Positions 18,590-25,748 of a stretch of 64,000 nucleotides of DNA are shown here, piece after piece. The DNA comes from an uncultured Polyangiales bacterium (GTDB lineage Bacteria; Myxococcota_A; Polyangia; Polyangiales; GCA-016699535): NCBI GenBank assembly GCA_964640175.1, contig CAZXFW010000002.1:70257-134256 (forward strand), given 5' to 3'. Position 1 is the first letter of the stretch. The number at the start of each line of letters is the position of its first letter. The notes below the pieces were generated by a model that was not told the DNA's origin, did no database searches, and was given only the letters and a program-made list of their open reading frames with translations. Made by a program: the position numbers and the translations under genes.

Positions 18590-19408
18590 ATGGTGGCCAA
18601 GTCAGACGCAATCACGTTCATCGGTGCTGGAAACATGGCCACTGCTTTGATCGAAGGCCTGCTTGCCTCCGGAACCTGCCAGCCCGATGCCATTACCGCC
18701 ACAGACGTGCGCACGGACGCCTTGGCCGCGCTGAAAGAACGGCTTGGTATTCACACCGCTTCTCATAACGATCACGCAGTCCGCCAGGCACGTTGCGTGG
18801 TCATCGCCGTCAAACCCCAGCAAGTCGTCGATGTGCTTACAGAGTTTGCCCCTCATCTGCCTAAGGAAGCCGTGGTGGTATCGATTGCTGCCGGGGTGCG
18901 TCTTCAGACATTGGCAGAGAAACTTCCACCCCAGACGGCGATTGTCCGCGCCATGCCGAACACTCCGGCACTGGTACGTCAGGGTGCAACCGCAGTAGCG
19001 GCAGGAGCCTTTGCTTCCGAAGCCGACCTTATGCTCGCCCGCCGCCTGTTCGAAAGCGTAGGACTTTGCGTCGAAGTACGCGAAGAAGCGCTGGACGCTG
19101 TCACTGCGCTAAGCGGCTCGGGCCCTGCTTACACCTTCCGATTTATTGAAATACTTATACAAGGAGGCGTCGCAGCCGGACTCTCTGCTGACACGGCACA
19201 CACACTAGCGCTTCAGACGGTACTGGGAGCTGCACAGCTTTTAAGAGTGACTGGCAAAAGCCCAGAAACGTTACGCAATGAAGTCACGAGCCCCGGAGGA
19301 ACCACGCTTGCCGGATTGGACGCCCTCGCGCACCATGGCTTTGAGGCATCGGTGCTGGCAGCCCTAAGCGCAGCCGAGCAGCGCTCACGCGAACTTGGCA
19401 AGCGTTAA
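18590..19408 (+). CDS. proC: pyrroline-5-carboxylate reductase
   Basis: 272 aa. Rossmann 'ITFIGAGNMATALIEGL', plus 'MPNTPALV' and 'VTSPGGTT'. Confidence 0.92.
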   Translation: MVAKSDAITFIGAGNMATALIEGLLASGTCQPDAITATDVRTDALAALKERLGIHTASHNDHAVRQARCVVIAVKPQQVVDVLTEFAPHLPKEAVVVSIAAGVRLQTLAEKLPPQTAIVRAMPNTPALVRQGATAVAAGAFASEADLMLARRLFESVGLCVEVREEALDAVTALSGSGPAYTFRFIEILIQGGVAAGLSADTAHTLALQTVLGAAQLLRVTGKSPETLRNEVTSPGGTTLAGLDALAHHGFEASVLAALSAAEQRSRELGKR

Positions 19409-20073
19409 GGCCGCGAACCAAAAAGCACGCTCCCTACACGCACGATCGTAGCCCCTTCCTCAATCGCAATCGCATAGTCCGCGCTCATTCCCATCGAAAG
19501 TTCAGCGAGCCCATACTGCTGCCCAAGCTCATAAAGCCGCCTGAAATATACCCGCACGACCTCGGGCGGTTCATTCGGGGGCACCAGCATCAGCCCCTGA
19601 AGATGGACATGCTTCAATTGTGCAGCATGGTGAATCAGCTCCGGCAATTCTTGAACGCTACAGCCAGACTTTTGAGCTTCCTCTGCCACGTTCACTTGAA
19701 TCAGTATGGGTACACACCGTTCCAGCCCTTGCGCGACGCTCTCAATGCGTTCCAATAACGCGATGGAGTTCACTGTCTGAATGCTCGTCGCAAGGCCGAG
19801 CGCCAACTTGACTTTATTGCGCTGCATAGGCCCGATGACATGCCAGCGAAGGTCTTTTAACTCCGCAAGCTCATCTGCTTTATGGTTCAGCTCCTGAATG
19901 TAGTTTTCACCAAAATCACGTAGCCCCAAAGCATAGGCCTGCCGCACAGCCTCTGCCGGATGTCCTTTGCTCACCGCCATCAGACGCACACTCCCTAGAG
20001 GGCGACCAACCTGTGTGCATACACGGTCGATGTGCGAACGGACGCGATCAAGACTTGCCTGGTCTATGGCCAT
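19405..20073 (-). CDS. yggS: YggS family pyridoxal-phosphate homeostasis protein
   Basis: 222 aa. Contains 'LMAVSKGHP', 'FGENYIQE', 'WHVIGPMQRNK', 'LSMGMSADY' and 'VRVGSVLFG'. Confidence 0.9.
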   Translation of the reverse strand: MAIDQASLDRVRSHIDRVCTQVGRPLGSVRLMAVSKGHPAEAVRQAYALGLRDFGENYIQELNHKADELAELKDLRWHVIGPMQRNKVKLALGLATSIQTVNSIALLERIESVAQGLERCVPILIQVNVAEEAQKSGCSVQELPELIHHAAQLKHVHLQGLMLVPPNEPPEVVRVYFRRLYELGQQYGLAELSMGMSADYAIAIEEGATIVRVGSVLFGSRP

Positions 20074-20660
20074 GTTTCTAGCACACCGATTTCAGATAAA
20101 AGCTCAAGCGTTTCTACCGTGGGTAACCCGACAACATTGCTATAGGAACCCTCAATGGCTTGGACAAGTCCCGCGCCCAACCCTTGAATGGCATAACTCC
20201 CTGCCTTGTCCTTTCCTTCGCCGCTTTGGATGTAACGCTCCAGCGTCTCGCGGCTCGCTTCGCGCAGTTTTACCCGCGTCTCAAGGACCTTCACGCCCAT
20301 ACGCCCCTGCCCAGGACCTCGTGCCACCACCGCCGTAAGCACATGGTGCCAACGTCCGCTAAGAGCGCTCACCATGTGTAGCGCTTCGTCATCATGCTGA
20401 GGTTTTCCGAAAATAACGTCATCCAACACCACAATCGTGTCTGCGGCTAACACACACACCATACGCTCGCCCAAACTCTTAAGTACATCGTTTGCCTTGT
20501 ACTCGGCAGCGCGTCGAACATAATCCCGCGGAGATTCCCCCTGCTCTGGAAACGGCTCATCCCGCGACGTAATCACTTCGAAGGTTAACCCAAGCTGTCC
20601 CAGAAGCTCTTTGCGACGAGGGGATGCCGAAGCCAACACCAATGGATAGCGAAGAAGCAT
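20064..20660 (-). CDS. maf: Maf family nucleoside-triphosphate pyrophosphatase (septum formation protein)
   Basis: 198 aa. Contains 'LVLASASPRRKELL', 'ADTIVVLD', 'GKP' and 'KAGSYAIQG'. Confidence 0.9.
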   Translation of the reverse strand: MLLRYPLVLASASPRRKELLGQLGLTFEVITSRDEPFPEQGESPRDYVRRAAEYKANDVLKSLGERMVCVLAADTIVVLDDVIFGKPQHDDEALHMVSALSGRWHHVLTAVVARGPGQGRMGVKVLETRVKLREASRETLERYIQSGEGKDKAGSYAIQGLGAGLVQAIEGSYSNVVGLPTVETLELLSEIGVLETWP

Positions 20661-20662
20661 CG

Positions 20663-22210
20663 TTATGCCGCAGAAGTCGCCTGTCGGTGGCGTTCTAAGA
20701 TACGCATGTAGGTGCGACTGACGTGTTTGGCATCCAACCTCAGCACCTTCGCAAATTCCGCTACGTAGCCACGCACGTACACTTTTTCGGGAAGAGCGCC
20801 AAAATCGTCCTCTTCAATCGCCTTCAGATAGCTTATCCCGATTTTGGTATGACGAGCAATGTAAGCCAAATCCACACCTTGTGCCTCTCGAATCGCGCGA
20901 AGCAACGCGCCATTGTACTGCGTGTCGGGGCCAATCTCTGGAAATAATGCCAATGCATCGATGTTGGGCTTGGATTCTTCTGCTAACGACACCTCAGGGG
21001 CTCGATGCGCTGGAAACAGCGTCTGTTCATAGACACTGCGTCGACTGGGATTGAGTAACACTTCATAGGCTTCGTCAATCTGTCCGCGCAAATGCTGCAA
21101 CTCATCGGAATCAAACAATCCATACGACGCTAACGAGTCGGGACTGTAAATTTCTTTCATGCGCTTACACGCTCTTCGGATTTCTTCGTCGGTTGCTCCA
21201 CGCCCCACTCCGAGAAGCCCAAAATAACTATCGACAGGTGCCGCGTCATAAGGAGCAGCCGTGCGGTCCAACGTCAACAAACGGCGAACGAGTTTTTCAA
21301 TTCCACGGCCAGCTTTGCTGCCAGGGCTTTCGACCATCAAGGGCCGCCGCTTGCGCATACAAAGCCAAGCCGCTTCGTCATAACTGACATGACCAAGGCA
21401 ATCGACACGCAACCCCAAACGCCGCTGAGACGCAATCGCAAGGCCCTCGCCAAGCTGCAGATCCTGCCGCACTCGTGTTTGATTGACCACAAGATGCAGC
21501 CTAAAGGATTCCAGTATCTTACGCGTGTATGGCACAAGAGGGTCATTCTCAGCTTCCAGCCTCTGCAAAAGCTCGTTCGGGGCAGGCACACCGGCAAGCT
21601 TACGCAAGCGTTGGCTCCAGGCTTTGCTCGAACCACGTTCCGGTTGAACGCGCTTTAACCGATGCCAAAAACTGACACGCAAGAAACGTTGTACATTTTC
21701 GATGGCACTGGGATCCGGCGTAGTCACATAAAGCCCCTGGTCCGCTTCAAAGAAAAGCTCTACAAGCGCGCGATCCATACCCTCGCCAAGATCAATCACC
21801 ACATGGTCAGCTTCCAAAGCACGGATATGCTTCGTAAGCGCGCTATAGCGAGCAAGGTTTTTAAGTCCTTCCAGGTATCGATCAACATCGCTGTAAGCGA
21901 CGTGTAAATCTGGATACAAGGTTTCAGCCGCATAAAGACCATCCACGCCATCCAATGACTGAGTTCCGCCGGATTCCGAATTCCCGGACGCACCTGGCGC
22001 CCGCGTTAATCCCAGCAAGGTATGGACGTTGCCACCCAAACGATCGGCATCCACCAACACCACTTTCCGCCCCATCGCAGCCAGACATAACGCCACATTG
22101 ACCGCGATAGTGGTCTTACCCACCCCCCCTTTGGCACCTGCCACAGCGATGACTTTTGGAATCTCTTTGCGGGAGCCGCGAGGATCGTTGCTTGGCCGTA
22201 TCGAAGACAT
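20663..22210 (-). CDS. ParA/MinD-type ATPase fused to a degenerate J-domain and a RodZ-like helix-turn-helix
   Basis: 515 aa. Deviant Walker A 'AGAKGGVGKTT' at aa 24-34. J-domain-like aa ~328-396 ('YFGLLGV...ATDEEIRRACKRMKEIYSPD...IDEAYEVLLNPSRRSVYE'), with SPD where HPD is expected. C-terminal 'LAYIARHTKIGISYLKAIEEDDFGALPEKVYVRGYV' matches the RodZ/HTH_25 pattern. Confidence 0.75.
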   Translation of the reverse strand: MSSIRPSNDPRGSRKEIPKVIAVAGAKGGVGKTTIAVNVALCLAAMGRKVVLVDADRLGGNVHTLLGLTRAPGASGNSESGGTQSLDGVDGLYAAETLYPDLHVAYSDVDRYLEGLKNLARYSALTKHIRALEADHVVIDLGEGMDRALVELFFEADQGLYVTTPDPSAIENVQRFLRVSFWHRLKRVQPERGSSKAWSQRLRKLAGVPAPNELLQRLEAENDPLVPYTRKILESFRLHLVVNQTRVRQDLQLGEGLAIASQRRLGLRVDCLGHVSYDEAAWLCMRKRRPLMVESPGSKAGRGIEKLVRRLLTLDRTAAPYDAAPVDSYFGLLGVGRGATDEEIRRACKRMKEIYSPDSLASYGLFDSDELQHLRGQIDEAYEVLLNPSRRSVYEQTLFPAHRAPEVSLAEESKPNIDALALFPEIGPDTQYNGALLRAIREAQGVDLAYIARHTKIGISYLKAIEEDDFGALPEKVYVRGYVAEFAKVLRLDAKHVSRTYMRILERHRQATSAA

Positions 22211-22339: not shown

Positions 22340-23557
22340 ATGCGTGTGTATTGGAATGGGTGGGCGATTGTCCTGTGGCTGTCTTTGGGAGGATGCCTGC
22401 AAGATCCCTCCTACGAAGACCATTCTTCCCAATCGGACCTCTTAGGCCTCACAAGCTGGCCGGCCGATGGTACCCAAAATGTACCGCTTAATCTCCGCTT
22501 CGTCGCTTTACGCTTTGATGAGCCTGTTTCGGACTCCGGTATCCTCGTTCTGTACGATGAGACATCCCAACAAGAGATGCCTTTACAACCACTAAGCGCA
22601 CCCTGTCATGCCATCGGTTGGTCAACCGGGCACTGCATGCTTGCTAAGCCAGTCAACGATCTTTTGCCTCACACGGCCTACCGATTGTCATGGCAATCAT
22701 CGACTGCCTCCGAAACGTCGCCATTGAAAAGCTGGCAAACAATCTTTCATACCGGCGCTTCCCATGACAAGGCTGCGCCTCATTGGCAACCTGAAACCTG
22801 TGCGATGGACGAGCATGCCTTGGACGTTGGGTGCCTGCTTCTAAGCGATCATGACTTGGCGCTTCGAGTCTTTAGTGACGAGCCTATCCGTCTGTGGCTT
22901 GAGACTGACTATGGCGCGACGCAGGTACTCGCCCCGCGAGGCATCGCTTCGTTGCATCTGACCGCATTGCCTGCAGATAGCCAGATACCTGTCATGCTCA
23001 CTGCAGCAGACGCAGCCGACAATGTCAGCCGTATCGATTTCGTCGTCCATACAGAAAAGGATCTTCCGATGCTCAGCATCACCAAAGTCTTGGCCAATCC
23101 CCGAGGCAAAGAGCCCCAGCAAGAGTTCATCGAAATTCACAATTTCGGCTCCATCCCCATAGAATTGTTAGGATTTCAGGTTTCAGACCGTTCCGATCAT
23201 CCAGGTGACATCATCGCCCAAACTTCCACTTTGTCCGCAGGTGCGCGGGCGTTAGTGGTGTCCTCTCACTTTGATACCACTGCCACCGACGATGGCGTGA
23301 TTCCCGAAGGCTTGCCGTTGATTCGTGTCGACGAATCGCTTGGAAGCGGAGGATTGGCAAATTCCGGAGAGCCCCTCTTCCTGAGAGATTCGCAAGGCCG
23401 GCGACTCTCTGCCGTTCCCGCGGTTTCAGCGCCCAAGCCAGGCGTGTGCTTGTTTCGCAGTGGCCAAGATCCCCGTAGTGACAGTCTTGAACATTTCTCG
23501 TACGAGCCCTTATGGGACTGTGCGCCAGGGCACCCTGTCCCACCACCCCATGACTGA
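22340..23557 (+). CDS. lipoprotein with C-terminal lamin-tail domain (LTD)
   Basis: 405 aa. Lipobox LSLGGC. C-terminal 'ITKVLANPRGKEPQQEFIEIHNFGSIPIELLGFQVSD...ANSGEPLFLRDSQGRRL' is the LTD signature. The N-terminal half is probably Ig-like. Confidence 0.65.
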   Translation: MRVYWNGWAIVLWLSLGGCLQDPSYEDHSSQSDLLGLTSWPADGTQNVPLNLRFVALRFDEPVSDSGILVLYDETSQQEMPLQPLSAPCHAIGWSTGHCMLAKPVNDLLPHTAYRLSWQSSTASETSPLKSWQTIFHTGASHDKAAPHWQPETCAMDEHALDVGCLLLSDHDLALRVFSDEPIRLWLETDYGATQVLAPRGIASLHLTALPADSQIPVMLTAADAADNVSRIDFVVHTEKDLPMLSITKVLANPRGKEPQQEFIEIHNFGSIPIELLGFQVSDRSDHPGDIIAQTSTLSAGARALVVSSHFDTTATDDGVIPEGLPLIRVDESLGSGGLANSGEPLFLRDSQGRRLSAVPAVSAPKPGVCLFRSGQDPRSDSLEHFSYEPLWDCAPGHPVPPPHD

Positions 23558-25748
23558 ACCGCTTCCCTTTGTCCGATCAGATGCCTCAGAGCTTCGAGGC
23601 CAGGTGGAAGCCACGATTTATCGCAGCCCTGATGAGCGCTTTGCCGTCCTTCGCATTAAGGAGTCTACCCATGGTCAGCTCGCTACCGTCGTCGGACCAT
23701 TGGGTACGGTAGCCGAAGGAGAATCTCTGCGCCTCAAAGGGCGATGGACCAAACATCCCAAACACGGCGAGCGTTTCGTCGTTGAAAATTTCAGTCCGAT
23801 TCCACCGACCACACTGGATGGATTGATCAAATACCTTGGATCTGGATTGATCCCCGGTGTAGGCCCATCCGTCGCAGAACGCATTGTTAAACGGTTTGGC
23901 ACAAAAACGCTGGATATCATCACCACTCAATCCGCGAGATTGCGCGAAGTCAAAGGGGTGGGTAACGCAAGAGCTCAGGCCATTGCCACGGCCGTGCGCA
24001 CACGGCGACAAGAAGCAGAGTCATTGGCGTACCTGCACGGCCTGAATATTGGCCCCGCACTCGCTCGCAAAATTTACACCCGATACAAAGATCACACCGC
24101 CCAGGCCATTGAGTCCGATCCCTATAAGGTGGCCGAAGAGATTTCAGGCGTGGGATTTCGAACCGCGGACCGAATCGGTCTTGCGGCGGGATTTGCTCAC
24201 GATGACATTCGAAGAGTTAAAAGCGCAGTGCGTTATGTCCTTTTTCGTGCCTCCGAAGAAGGACACACGTACCTTTCCTATAACGAACTGGCTCACGCAT
24301 TGGCGGGCTATGCCGTGTCTGATACCGCCTTGGCCTCTGCGCTAAGTCAGCTGGATGAGCGCGGGGAAATTCGCATCGAGGACCAAGCGATCTTTCTTAG
24401 CGCTTTGTTCGCAGCAGAATGTTACGTTGCACAACGCCTGAGCCAATTGGCACAGCCTCGAACACCGCCCGAAGAAGCGTGCGCTGCCGAGGACAAGAGC
24501 CAAGCCACGCTCGAAACACTCTCACCGCTACAACGGCAAGCTGCAGCATCCAGCTTACGCTCAGGACTATTGGTGCTCACCGGCGGCCCTGGCACAGGCA
24601 AGACCACTGCCGTATCTGCGATACTTCATGTCCATCGTGCCGCAAACCATCGTGTCGCTCTTTGCGCCCCTACCGGACGCGCTGCCAAGCGGCTTTCCGA
24701 AGCCACAGGACATCCAGCCTCTACGATACACCGGTTGCTGGAATGGAACCCTTCGACAGCGTCGTTCAGCCGCAACGCTCGCATGCCACTCGACGCAGAC
24801 TTGGTACTGATCGACGAAGCCTCCATGCTCGATTTACCCTTGTGCCAACATCTGCTGGCCGCCATTTCAGACACCGCGTCTGTGGTGTTTGTGGGTGATG
24901 TCAACCAACTGCCGCCTATAGGGCCAGGCCACGTGCTTCGGGCTATCCTCGACAGTCAGGTAGGGACGGTCATCCGCTTAAGCCAAGTTTTTCGTCAAGC
25001 AGAAAAAAGTGCCATTGTACGCGCAGCCCATGCATTGCTTCAGGGTAAGCTTACGCACGAGGCGCCCGCTACCCCTACCGGAGACGGCGATTTGTTCGTC
25101 CTTCGCACCAAAGACAGCACACGCAGCATTGAGAAGCTCCTTTACATGGTAGAGCGCATTCGACAGGTCTACAAACTCGATTCCGTACACGATGTGCAAG
25201 TGCTTAGTGCCATGCGCAAAGGTCAAGCCGGCATTGACGCGCTAAACGAAATACTGCAAACGAAACTCAATCCCTCAACAGCAGGCTCCCCCCCAAACAC
25301 ATTGCGACTGGGTGACAAAGTCATGCAACTTCGCAATGACTACGACCGCGATGTCTACAACGGAGATTTGGGAAGAGTGGCTTCTATCCAAGACGGCAAC
25401 ATCGTCATTGACTTCGATGGCCGCAACGTGGCCTATGGCACCAAAGACCTCGATGCGCTTACGTTAGCCTATGCGTGCACGATTCATAAAGCCCAAGGCA
25501 GCGAGTTTCCGGCTGTTATCATCATTTTAGACACCGGGCATCATGTGCTGCTCAATCGATCTTTGCTGTACACGGCCATGACCCGTGCCCGAAAGCTCGC
25601 CGTGATCATCGGCCCGGAACGAGCCTTAGAACGTGCTGCGCGAAATGTTTCAAGTCGTCAGGCAAACACGCGATTGAATATTCGATTGGCTACGAACGCA
25701 AAAGCGCTGCAAGCACGCCATCATGAAACGCCGGGCGAAACCCCTTAA
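23550..25748 (+). CDS. recD2: RecD2-type SF1 DNA helicase (RecD-like, YrrC family)
   Basis: Contains 'VLTGGPGTGKTT', 'LIDEASMLD', 'VFVGDVNQLPPIGPG', 'CTIHKAQGSEFPAVI' and 'LLYTAMTRARKLAVI'. Start placed at ATG 23550 (MTEPLPF), which overlaps the upstream stop as ATGACTGA. Confidence 0.88.
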   Translation: MTEPLPFVRSDASELRGQVEATIYRSPDERFAVLRIKESTHGQLATVVGPLGTVAEGESLRLKGRWTKHPKHGERFVVENFSPIPPTTLDGLIKYLGSGLIPGVGPSVAERIVKRFGTKTLDIITTQSARLREVKGVGNARAQAIATAVRTRRQEAESLAYLHGLNIGPALARKIYTRYKDHTAQAIESDPYKVAEEISGVGFRTADRIGLAAGFAHDDIRRVKSAVRYVLFRASEEGHTYLSYNELAHALAGYAVSDTALASALSQLDERGEIRIEDQAIFLSALFAAECYVAQRLSQLAQPRTPPEEACAAEDKSQATLETLSPLQRQAAASSLRSGLLVLTGGPGTGKTTAVSAILHVHRAANHRVALCAPTGRAAKRLSEATGHPASTIHRLLEWNPSTASFSRNARMPLDADLVLIDEASMLDLPLCQHLLAAISDTASVVFVGDVNQLPPIGPGHVLRAILDSQVGTVIRLSQVFRQAEKSAIVRAAHALLQGKLTHEAPATPTGDGDLFVLRTKDSTRSIEKLLYMVERIRQVYKLDSVHDVQVLSAMRKGQAGIDALNEILQTKLNPSTAGSPPNTLRLGDKVMQLRNDYDRDVYNGDLGRVASIQDGNIVIDFDGRNVAYGTKDLDALTLAYACTIHKAQGSEFPAVIIILDTGHHVLLNRSLLYTAMTRARKLAVIIGPERALERAARNVSSRQANTRLNIRLATNAKALQARHHETPGETP

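Follow-up and report, generated by a model that had tools for sequence, protein, structure and literature searches.

Gene and domain organization

The window considered in this study, a stretch of 64,000 nucleotides (nt) from contig CAZXFW010000002.1 of an uncultured Polyangiales bacterium, carries on its minus strand an ATG-initiated open reading frame (ORF) of 515 amino acids (aa), in which a FlhG/MinD-like ATPase domain, a J-like domain and a RodZ-type helix-turn-helix (HTH) domain are joined into one polypeptide (Table 1). The protein is a ParA/MinD system with a previously undescribed type of partner, composed of a J fold that lacks the His-Pro-Asp (HPD) tripeptide and of a RodZ-type HTH. 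An earlier interpretation made from the DNA letters alone (the sequence-only reading) had recognized the three modules in a single ORF, the strand left unstated, and the Pfam search that it had suggested supports the J-like and HTH modules along with the ATPase (PF10609, PF00226, PF13413). Its placing of the gene relative to its neighbours is equally sound: the stop codon (20663-20665) lies 2 nt from the ATG of maf (20660-20658), and maf in turn overlaps yggS, both genes now being identified by Pfam. A scan for promoters and terminators returned nothing above shuffled expectation.

The search for orthologues covered 5.8 billion proteins and yielded 241 relatives, the best 120 of which form the fused set used for residue counts; nearly all of these 120 show the order ParA, DnaJ, HTH_25. 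AlphaFold2 (AF2) models the 515-aa protein as a single chain with a mean predicted local distance difference test score (pLDDT) of 86 and a predicted template modelling score (pTM) of 0.75.

Table 1. Coordinates of the fused gene, its parts and its neighbours in the window, and of two further genes of the host genome (G000)
Feature	Position	Strand	Basis
515-aa ORF: FlhG/MinD-like ATPase, J-like domain and RodZ-type HTH	20663..22210	minus	ORF listing, Pfam, AF2, homologues
ATPase domain, residues ~15-317	21260..22168	minus	PDB profile search, Foldseek, residue conservation
J-like domain, four helices, residues 329-398	21017..21226	minus	PF00226, AF2
SPD at the HPD position, S356-P357-D358	21137..21145	minus	alignment to E. 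coli DnaJ
Linker from J-like domain to HTH, residues 399-433	20912..21016	minus	AF2; low pLDDT at 405-409
RodZ-type HTH_25 and C-terminal helix, residues 434-514	20666..20911	minus	PF13413; PDB profile search
maf (nucleotide pyrophosphatase), 2 nt downstream of fusion stop	20064..20660	minus	PF02545, 187 bits
yggS (pyridoxal phosphate-binding protein), 10-nt overlap with maf	19405..20073	minus	PF01168, 77 bits; synteny
Lamin-tail-domain (LTD) protein gene, divergent from fusion	22340-23557	plus	PF00932, 33.2 bits, just under cut-off
recD2, divergent from fusion	23460-25748	plus	
Host membrane RodZ, 178 aa	G000:C4:181628-182164 (L028 1216..1752)	minus	HTH_25, 81.7 bits
FHIPEP (FlhA/SctV-type) export-gate gene, split over two contig ends	G000:C11:3-485 + G000:C18:9863-11212		

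Fused and split forms of the module

Among the 301 Myxococcota genomes sampled for the phylum survey, 232 contain a match to the 515-aa protein. In 47 of the 48 genomes that represent the window's order, and in most of the class, the match is full length without internal stop, and the fused form recurs in independent metagenome-assembled genomes (MAGs) from several studies. Named carriers all belong to Myxococcota (Sandaracinaceae, Polyangiaceae, Polyangiales, Kofleriaceae, "Myxococcales"). The idea that two genes have been joined by an assembly or frameshift artefact, which the sequence-only reading had itself raised and which the existence of the halves as separate genes in other lineages might seem to favour, is refuted by these uninterrupted matches in nearly all genomes of the order and in independent MAGs, as well as by the modelling of the protein as one chain at the pTM given above.

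Elsewhere the same protein occurs in two pieces. In other classes of Myxococcota the match is divided, at about residue 317, between neighbouring genes of one strand, the first encoding the ATPase and the second the J-like domain with the HTH (J-HTH). The junction takes several forms: the genes for a 360-aa ATPase and a 208-aa J-HTH protein share 4 nt (L027), the two genes lie in different frames (L022 and L023), or they share one frame with a stop between them (L025 and L026). At 20 further Myxococcota loci from about a dozen families, the J-HTH gene lies directly downstream of the ATPase gene in 19. A full-length J-HTH is also found in 20 of 101 genomes of Nitrospirota (E 1e-43 or better), the phylum of locus L006 from a Nitrospirota MAG, and each of the four Nitrospirota loci that were examined encodes, directly upstream of it, an ATPase with 29-31% identity to that of the fusion. 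Out of 1.84 billion, the profile of the standalone J-HTH retrieved 1,398 cluster representatives (50% identity) with E values of 1e-30 or lower. A query with the C-terminal half alone returned mostly gene fragments on short contigs.

ATPase and J-HTH are obligately linked, fused or adjacent, in two phyla. They constitute a core, vertically inherited pair that is present in most sampled Myxococcota and in about one-fifth of the sampled Nitrospirota. Only the fused form is typical of the window's class; as two genes, the pair is phylum-wide. The J-HTH half of the fusion is the separate partner of the ATPase in other lineages (a Rosetta-stone fusion), a relation that the sequence-only reading had missed; its suggestion of a lineage-specific factor is wrong. 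Separately, four loci (L006-L009; Nitrospirota, Elusimicrobiota and others) were considered as module loci and discarded, having given only matches of the HTH to ordinary RodZ and matches to a separate DnaJ.

It is chiefly by ParA/MinD ATPases that bacteria place large structures, and what defines each known system is the partner protein. ParA-ParB, MinD-MinE, McdA-McdB and PomZ-PomXY likewise have the gene of a dedicated partner next after that of the ATPase, often with translational coupling, and their partners, too, combine an ATPase-proximal part with a cargo-binding part. The present module is distinct in that an HPD-less J fold together with HTH_25 is unlike any described partner, and in that ATPase and partner form one polypeptide in this class. 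A full-text literature search revealed no paper on the ATPase-J-HTH architecture, and no curated family or solved structure was found; the main texts of a 2024 review of ParA/MinD and of an October 2026 survey of the ParA clade mention neither a J nor a RodZ partner. The relatives are labelled "helix-turn-helix domain-containing protein" or, by JGI, 'flagellar biosynthesis protein FlhG', and exact look-up of their names returned 'hypothetical', 'FlhG' or 'CbpA' only. No characterised member was found, in agreement with what the sequence-only reading had supposed.

The ATPase domain and its relation to FleN/FlhG

The ATPase domain has the motifs that define the ParA/MinD class. The deviant Walker A GAKGGVGKTT, correctly read from the sequence before, occupies residues 25-34 with signature K27, P-loop K32 and T34, and is accompanied by switch I (Walker A') D54/D56 and Walker B D140. 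D140 is retained in 120/120 and D54 in 118/118 of the fused relatives; the Walker A of the split ATPases reads KGGTGRS, KGGSGRS or KGGTGQS. In Pfam, PF10609 (ParA/NUBPL) matches residues 17-177 (E 1.3e-15), and CbiA, AAA_31 and others match as well.

FleN and FlhG (YlxH) are MinD-like ATPases that control flagellar number and placement, and it is to these proteins (5j1j, 7ejw, 8p53, 4rz2, 4rz3) that the domain is closest in profile and fold. The family profile searched against the PDB gives FleN 5j1j first (E 1e-30), FlhG 4rz2/4rz3 next and then MinD. Foldseek with the AF2 model places FleN/FlhG at the top, with a TM-score (target) of 0.72-0.78, and assigns probability 1.00 to FleN, FlhG, MinD and Soj. 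Deviant Walker A, switch I and Walker B are common to both sides of the comparison, and an ATP-dependent dimer switch probably is too. The differences are equally clear. Alignment by sequence covers only the N-terminal half of the domain, the C-terminal half of which contains a helical insert specific to the family (residues ~187-235); a further loop at residues 74-89 is disordered. The domain ends in a basic amphipathic helix (residues 299-316), which may be a core helix or a membrane-targeting sequence; directly after it the standalone ATPases terminate, and the fusion continues into the J-like domain. At its C-terminus the fused protein has a J-like domain and a RodZ-type HTH where FleN/FlhG have an amphipathic membrane helix, and the partner is the J-HTH protein as compared to FliM/FliY or FleQ.

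The view that the protein is FlhG/YlxH itself, a regulator of flagellar number, as the JGI label of many relatives and the closest solved structures would have it, is refuted for this genome. The host genome, estimated to be 100% complete, has no FliG_C match; the FlhG label is therefore regarded as an artefact of similarity. A FHIPEP export-gate gene is present in the host, with no flagellar rotor gene beside it, and probably belongs to a type III secretion-like system and not to a flagellum. Moreover, no curated NCBIfam model is passed by the 515-aa protein: the MinD models TIGR01968 (58.8 bits; cut-off 212.9) and TIGR01969 (59.3 bits; cut-off 201.75) both remain far below threshold, no FlhG-specific model appears among the 25 best matches listed, and the J-HTH extension is foreign to FlhG.

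A J fold without the Hsp70 trigger

PF00226 (DnaJ) matches residues 329-395 with 30.3 bits against a gathering cut-off of 27.8, and the family profile also matches J-domains of DnaJ in the PDB. In the AF2 model four helices (residues 329-333, 341-354, 368-386 and 388-398) are predicted with pLDDT 92-98. The loop between helices II and III is about 5 residues longer than in E. coli DnaJ, alignment to which confirms SPD at the HPD position, as first read from the DNA. HPD is present in none of the 120 fused relatives and in none of the 119 proteins of a second set that includes standalone forms (0/239 in total). In the fused set, His never stands at the first position of the tripeptide, where A, G, D, S, T and Q are the six commonest residues, and the Nitrospirota copies have DPN, EPN or SGE. 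Drift confined to one strain, which the sequence-only reading had considered, is thereby refuted; the loss of HPD is ancestral in the family. What remains of the J fold is under strong constraint: helix II has R345/R346 in 120/120 and K349 and R350 in at least 95% of the fused relatives, and R390, R391 and Y394 of helix IV are invariant in a 68-sequence alignment.

The HPD tripeptide is indispensable for stimulation of the Hsp70 ATPase. Its family-wide absence therefore implies, by established knowledge, that the J-like domain cannot be a canonical activator of DnaK, which lends weight to the DnaK-inert adaptor proposed from the sequence alone. The mitochondrial protein Pam16/Tim16 is a J-like protein without HPD that is tied to the Hsp70 motor. 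By analogy, the J fold kept and the HPD trigger lost in both cases would imply an adaptor or regulatory role and not Hsp70 activation; lineage and context are unrelated, however, and the J-like domain here is tied to a ParA/MinD ATPase. One can also envisage a specialised Hsp70 partner, in which the J-like domain holds an Hsp70 paralogue through the basic helix II without the trigger, and ATPase and HTH serve localisation. The nearly invariant basic residues of helix II and the RRxxY of helix IV would suit such a function, as would several Hsp70-sized actin-fold ORFs in the host genome (weak PF06723 matches, open frames of 605-676 aa). We nonetheless consider it quite improbable, given the complete lack of HPD among the relatives, the lengthened helix II-III loop and the fact that neither dnaK nor grpE occurs among the conserved neighbours at the loci examined.

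As an observation in its own right, a second, distant fused form (26-28% identity) is encoded at locus L024 (G166:C14, family f15). Its J-like segment is strongly degenerate, and the ATPase (GAKGGAGRS) and the HTH (VYLRGYL) are retained; it may have arisen by a separate fusion event or show a J domain in decay.

The RodZ-type HTH as a probable tethered distal arm

PF13413 (HTH_25) covers residues 436-497 in 62 of 62 model positions, with 73.7 bits against a cut-off of 24.6. Relatives by sequence in the PDB are exclusively N-domains of RodZ, namely Chlamydia CT009 (4gqm), S. aureus (3fym) and T. maritima (2wus_R). The alignment to 2wus_R, the RodZ chain of the RodZ-MreB complex, is free of gaps and equates Y478 with Y53 and Y482 with Y57. 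In T. maritima RodZ, these helix-4 aromatic positions contact MreB (PMC9804626), and the equivalent mutation F60A in E. coli RodZ weakens MreB binding (PMC13584716). Y478 is found in 120/120 fused relatives, as is F or Y at position 482; the most conserved positions of the HTH are these helix-4 aromatics, not the recognition helix. With RodZ, the fusion thus shares a full-length HTH_25 match and the aromatics that contact MreB. It differs in being soluble, without the juxtamembrane region, the transmembrane helix or the periplasmic RodZ_C, and in having the HTH at the C-terminus instead of the N-terminus: the 515-aa protein has no transmembrane segment and ends 18 residues past the HTH_25 match.

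Only two architectures are found in the family, J-linker-HTH and ATPase-J-linker-HTH, and the protein always ends just past the HTH. The connection of ATPase and J-like domain is short (about 12 residues here), and the linker between J-like domain and HTH ranges from ~40 to ~400 residues across the relatives. Short link, long variable linker and terminal HTH together suggest that the J-like domain is ATPase-proximal and that the HTH is a tethered distal arm. Among the family architectures there is no other fusion partner of J-HTH that could name a cargo; longer linkers are the only variation seen.

Could the HTH bind DNA instead of protein? The module would then be a DNA-directed regulator or a nucleoid-bound ParA, either with an XRE-fold HTH on DNA in the manner of an autoregulatory type Ia ParA, or with an ATPase that antagonises a transcription activator as in FleN-FleQ; in both cases its target would be gene expression or positioning on the nucleoid, not the cytoskeleton. 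Among solved structures the ATPase does have its closest relatives in FleN, FleN-FleQ complexes included, no membrane-targeting helix is identified, and the XRE-type models HTH_19 and HTH_31 match the HTH in Pfam. These last matches are sub-threshold, however, compared with an end-to-end HTH_25 match at three times its cut-off; the PDB relatives of the HTH are all RodZ N-domains, that is, protein-binding modules; and the strongest conservation bypasses the recognition helix. The variation of the neighbouring genes by lineage further argues against an operon autoregulator. A role on DNA is accordingly judged doubtful.

Proposed mechanism and its standing

We interpret the protein as a ParA/MinD-type two-component module with fused partner, in which the HTH binds a target for which MreB is the leading candidate, and we assign to this statement as a whole a probability of about 0.6. 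That figure reflects its two parts. A FlhG/FleN/MinD-like dimerising ATPase with a dedicated partner, elsewhere encoded by the next gene, is likely. MreB as target of the RodZ-type HTH, made the leading candidate cargo by the helix-4 contact aromatics kept in the HTH, is unproven and holds somewhat less than an even chance. The module would be neither a DnaK co-chaperone nor a flagellar regulator, and the division-site role suggested in the sequence-only reading finds no direct support in the analysis.

In the proposed mechanism, binding of ATP would dimerise the ATPase domain. The J-like domain, with J fold and basic helix II kept and no trigger of Hsp70 hydrolysis, would act as an ATPase-proximal adaptor or regulator, and the RodZ-type HTH, on its flexible tether, would be free to dock on a protein of the cytoskeleton or envelope, most likely MreB, via Y478 and Y482. 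Hydrolysis of ATP would then reset the complex. In this way the module might organise or regulate, spatially or temporally, MreB and the elongasome or some other machine that depends on MreB.

Several points weigh against this interpretation. On the side of the ATPase, K occupies the signature position (residue 27) in 60 of the 120 fused relatives and R in 58, and the P-loop Lys (residue 32) is kept in 103/120, a loss in about 14% of the family; of 118 aligned sequences, 15 have T, R or some other residue in its place. Because of the lost P-loop Lys and the signature Lys often exchanged for Arg, some family members may bind ATP but not hydrolyse it. For the ATPase neither a membrane-targeting helix nor a DNA-binding surface is established, and the role assigned to the J-like domain is purely one that we infer. 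On the side of the target, T. maritima RodZ K36 was reportedly described as a third MreB contact residue in the 2010 RodZ-MreB structure paper, and the position aligned to it is Y/H/F in the fused relatives. The host genome, which encodes MreB, already has a separate membrane RodZ. In S. pneumoniae, which is without MreB, the RodZ HTH makes other protein contacts (PMC9804626). Lastly, MreB occurs in 19/20 module-bearing and in 20/20 module-lacking Nitrospirota and so does not discriminate between them; the protein being nearly universal in this phylum, the co-occurrence test is uninformative. As a side observation, one Nitrospirota genome (G395) is the only module-bearing genome without a MreB match at E 1e-60, which may be a gap in the MAG or a real exception to an MreB link.

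A bolder version of the mechanism sees the J-HTH partner as a two-handed binder of actin-fold ATPases, with the HTH on MreB subdomain IIA, the J-like domain re-purposed from the nucleotide-binding domain of Hsp70, which has an actin fold too, to MreB, and a MinD-like cycle switching the grip. This Min-like regulator of MreB we hold to be unlikely. If true, it would be an unrecognised and widespread one, in Myxococcota, Nitrospirota and possibly other phyla.

Returning to the two-component module with MreB as candidate target, the binding of MreB by the HTH would, if true, make it the first ATP-driven positioning switch on the actin-like cytoskeleton, with bearing on cell shape and, in myxobacteria, on MreB-dependent gliding. 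The natural fusion also presents a complex already joined into a single chain, which is convenient for structural and biochemical studies.

Gene context and host genome

The genes that neighbour the fusion and the split pair are all housekeeping genes, and screening with the defence-system models of PADLOC gave only a 22.9-bit P-loop match and no match to a defence system. In most relatives of the class, maf directly follows the fusion, usually with yggS thereafter, and the block of serine hydrolase, recD2 and LTD genes is syntenic with the fusion across the order. The maf linkage is not fixed even within the genus, as is evident from the closest relative, of the same genus, with a 63% identical fusion (L011; G059:C1) in which yggS starts ~87 nt after the fusion without maf between. 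The split lineages show the order selA, ATPase, J-HTH, rluD, with rng (RNase G) divergent upstream. Counted over 25 loci of other Myxococcota classes (L022-L027 and L039-L058), selA is upstream in 16, an rluD-type pseudouridine synthase is directly downstream in 19, and RNase G is divergent further upstream in at least 8. A fusion at the head of a maf-yggS cluster, as proposed in the sequence-only reading, thus describes the class and neither the same-genus relative nor the split lineages. In E. coli, maf and rng are the two genes next after mreBCD; the maf/rng context hints at a link with MreB only circumstantially.

With 2.89 Mb and 51.8% GC, the host genome is unusually small and GC-poor for Myxococcota, sampled relatives of which mostly have 4-10 Mb. 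Its other genes with deviant Walker A, found by hidden Markov model search and missed by tblastn, comprise one ApbC-like, two ParA-like, one ArsA-like and one Wzc-like gene; MinD is not among them. PF13464 (RodZ_C) is matched nowhere in the host genome. The 178-aa membrane RodZ of the host consists of HTH_25, a basic stretch and one transmembrane helix, without periplasmic RodZ_C, and its gene lies between genes for a tetratricopeptide repeat lipoprotein and a recO-like protein.

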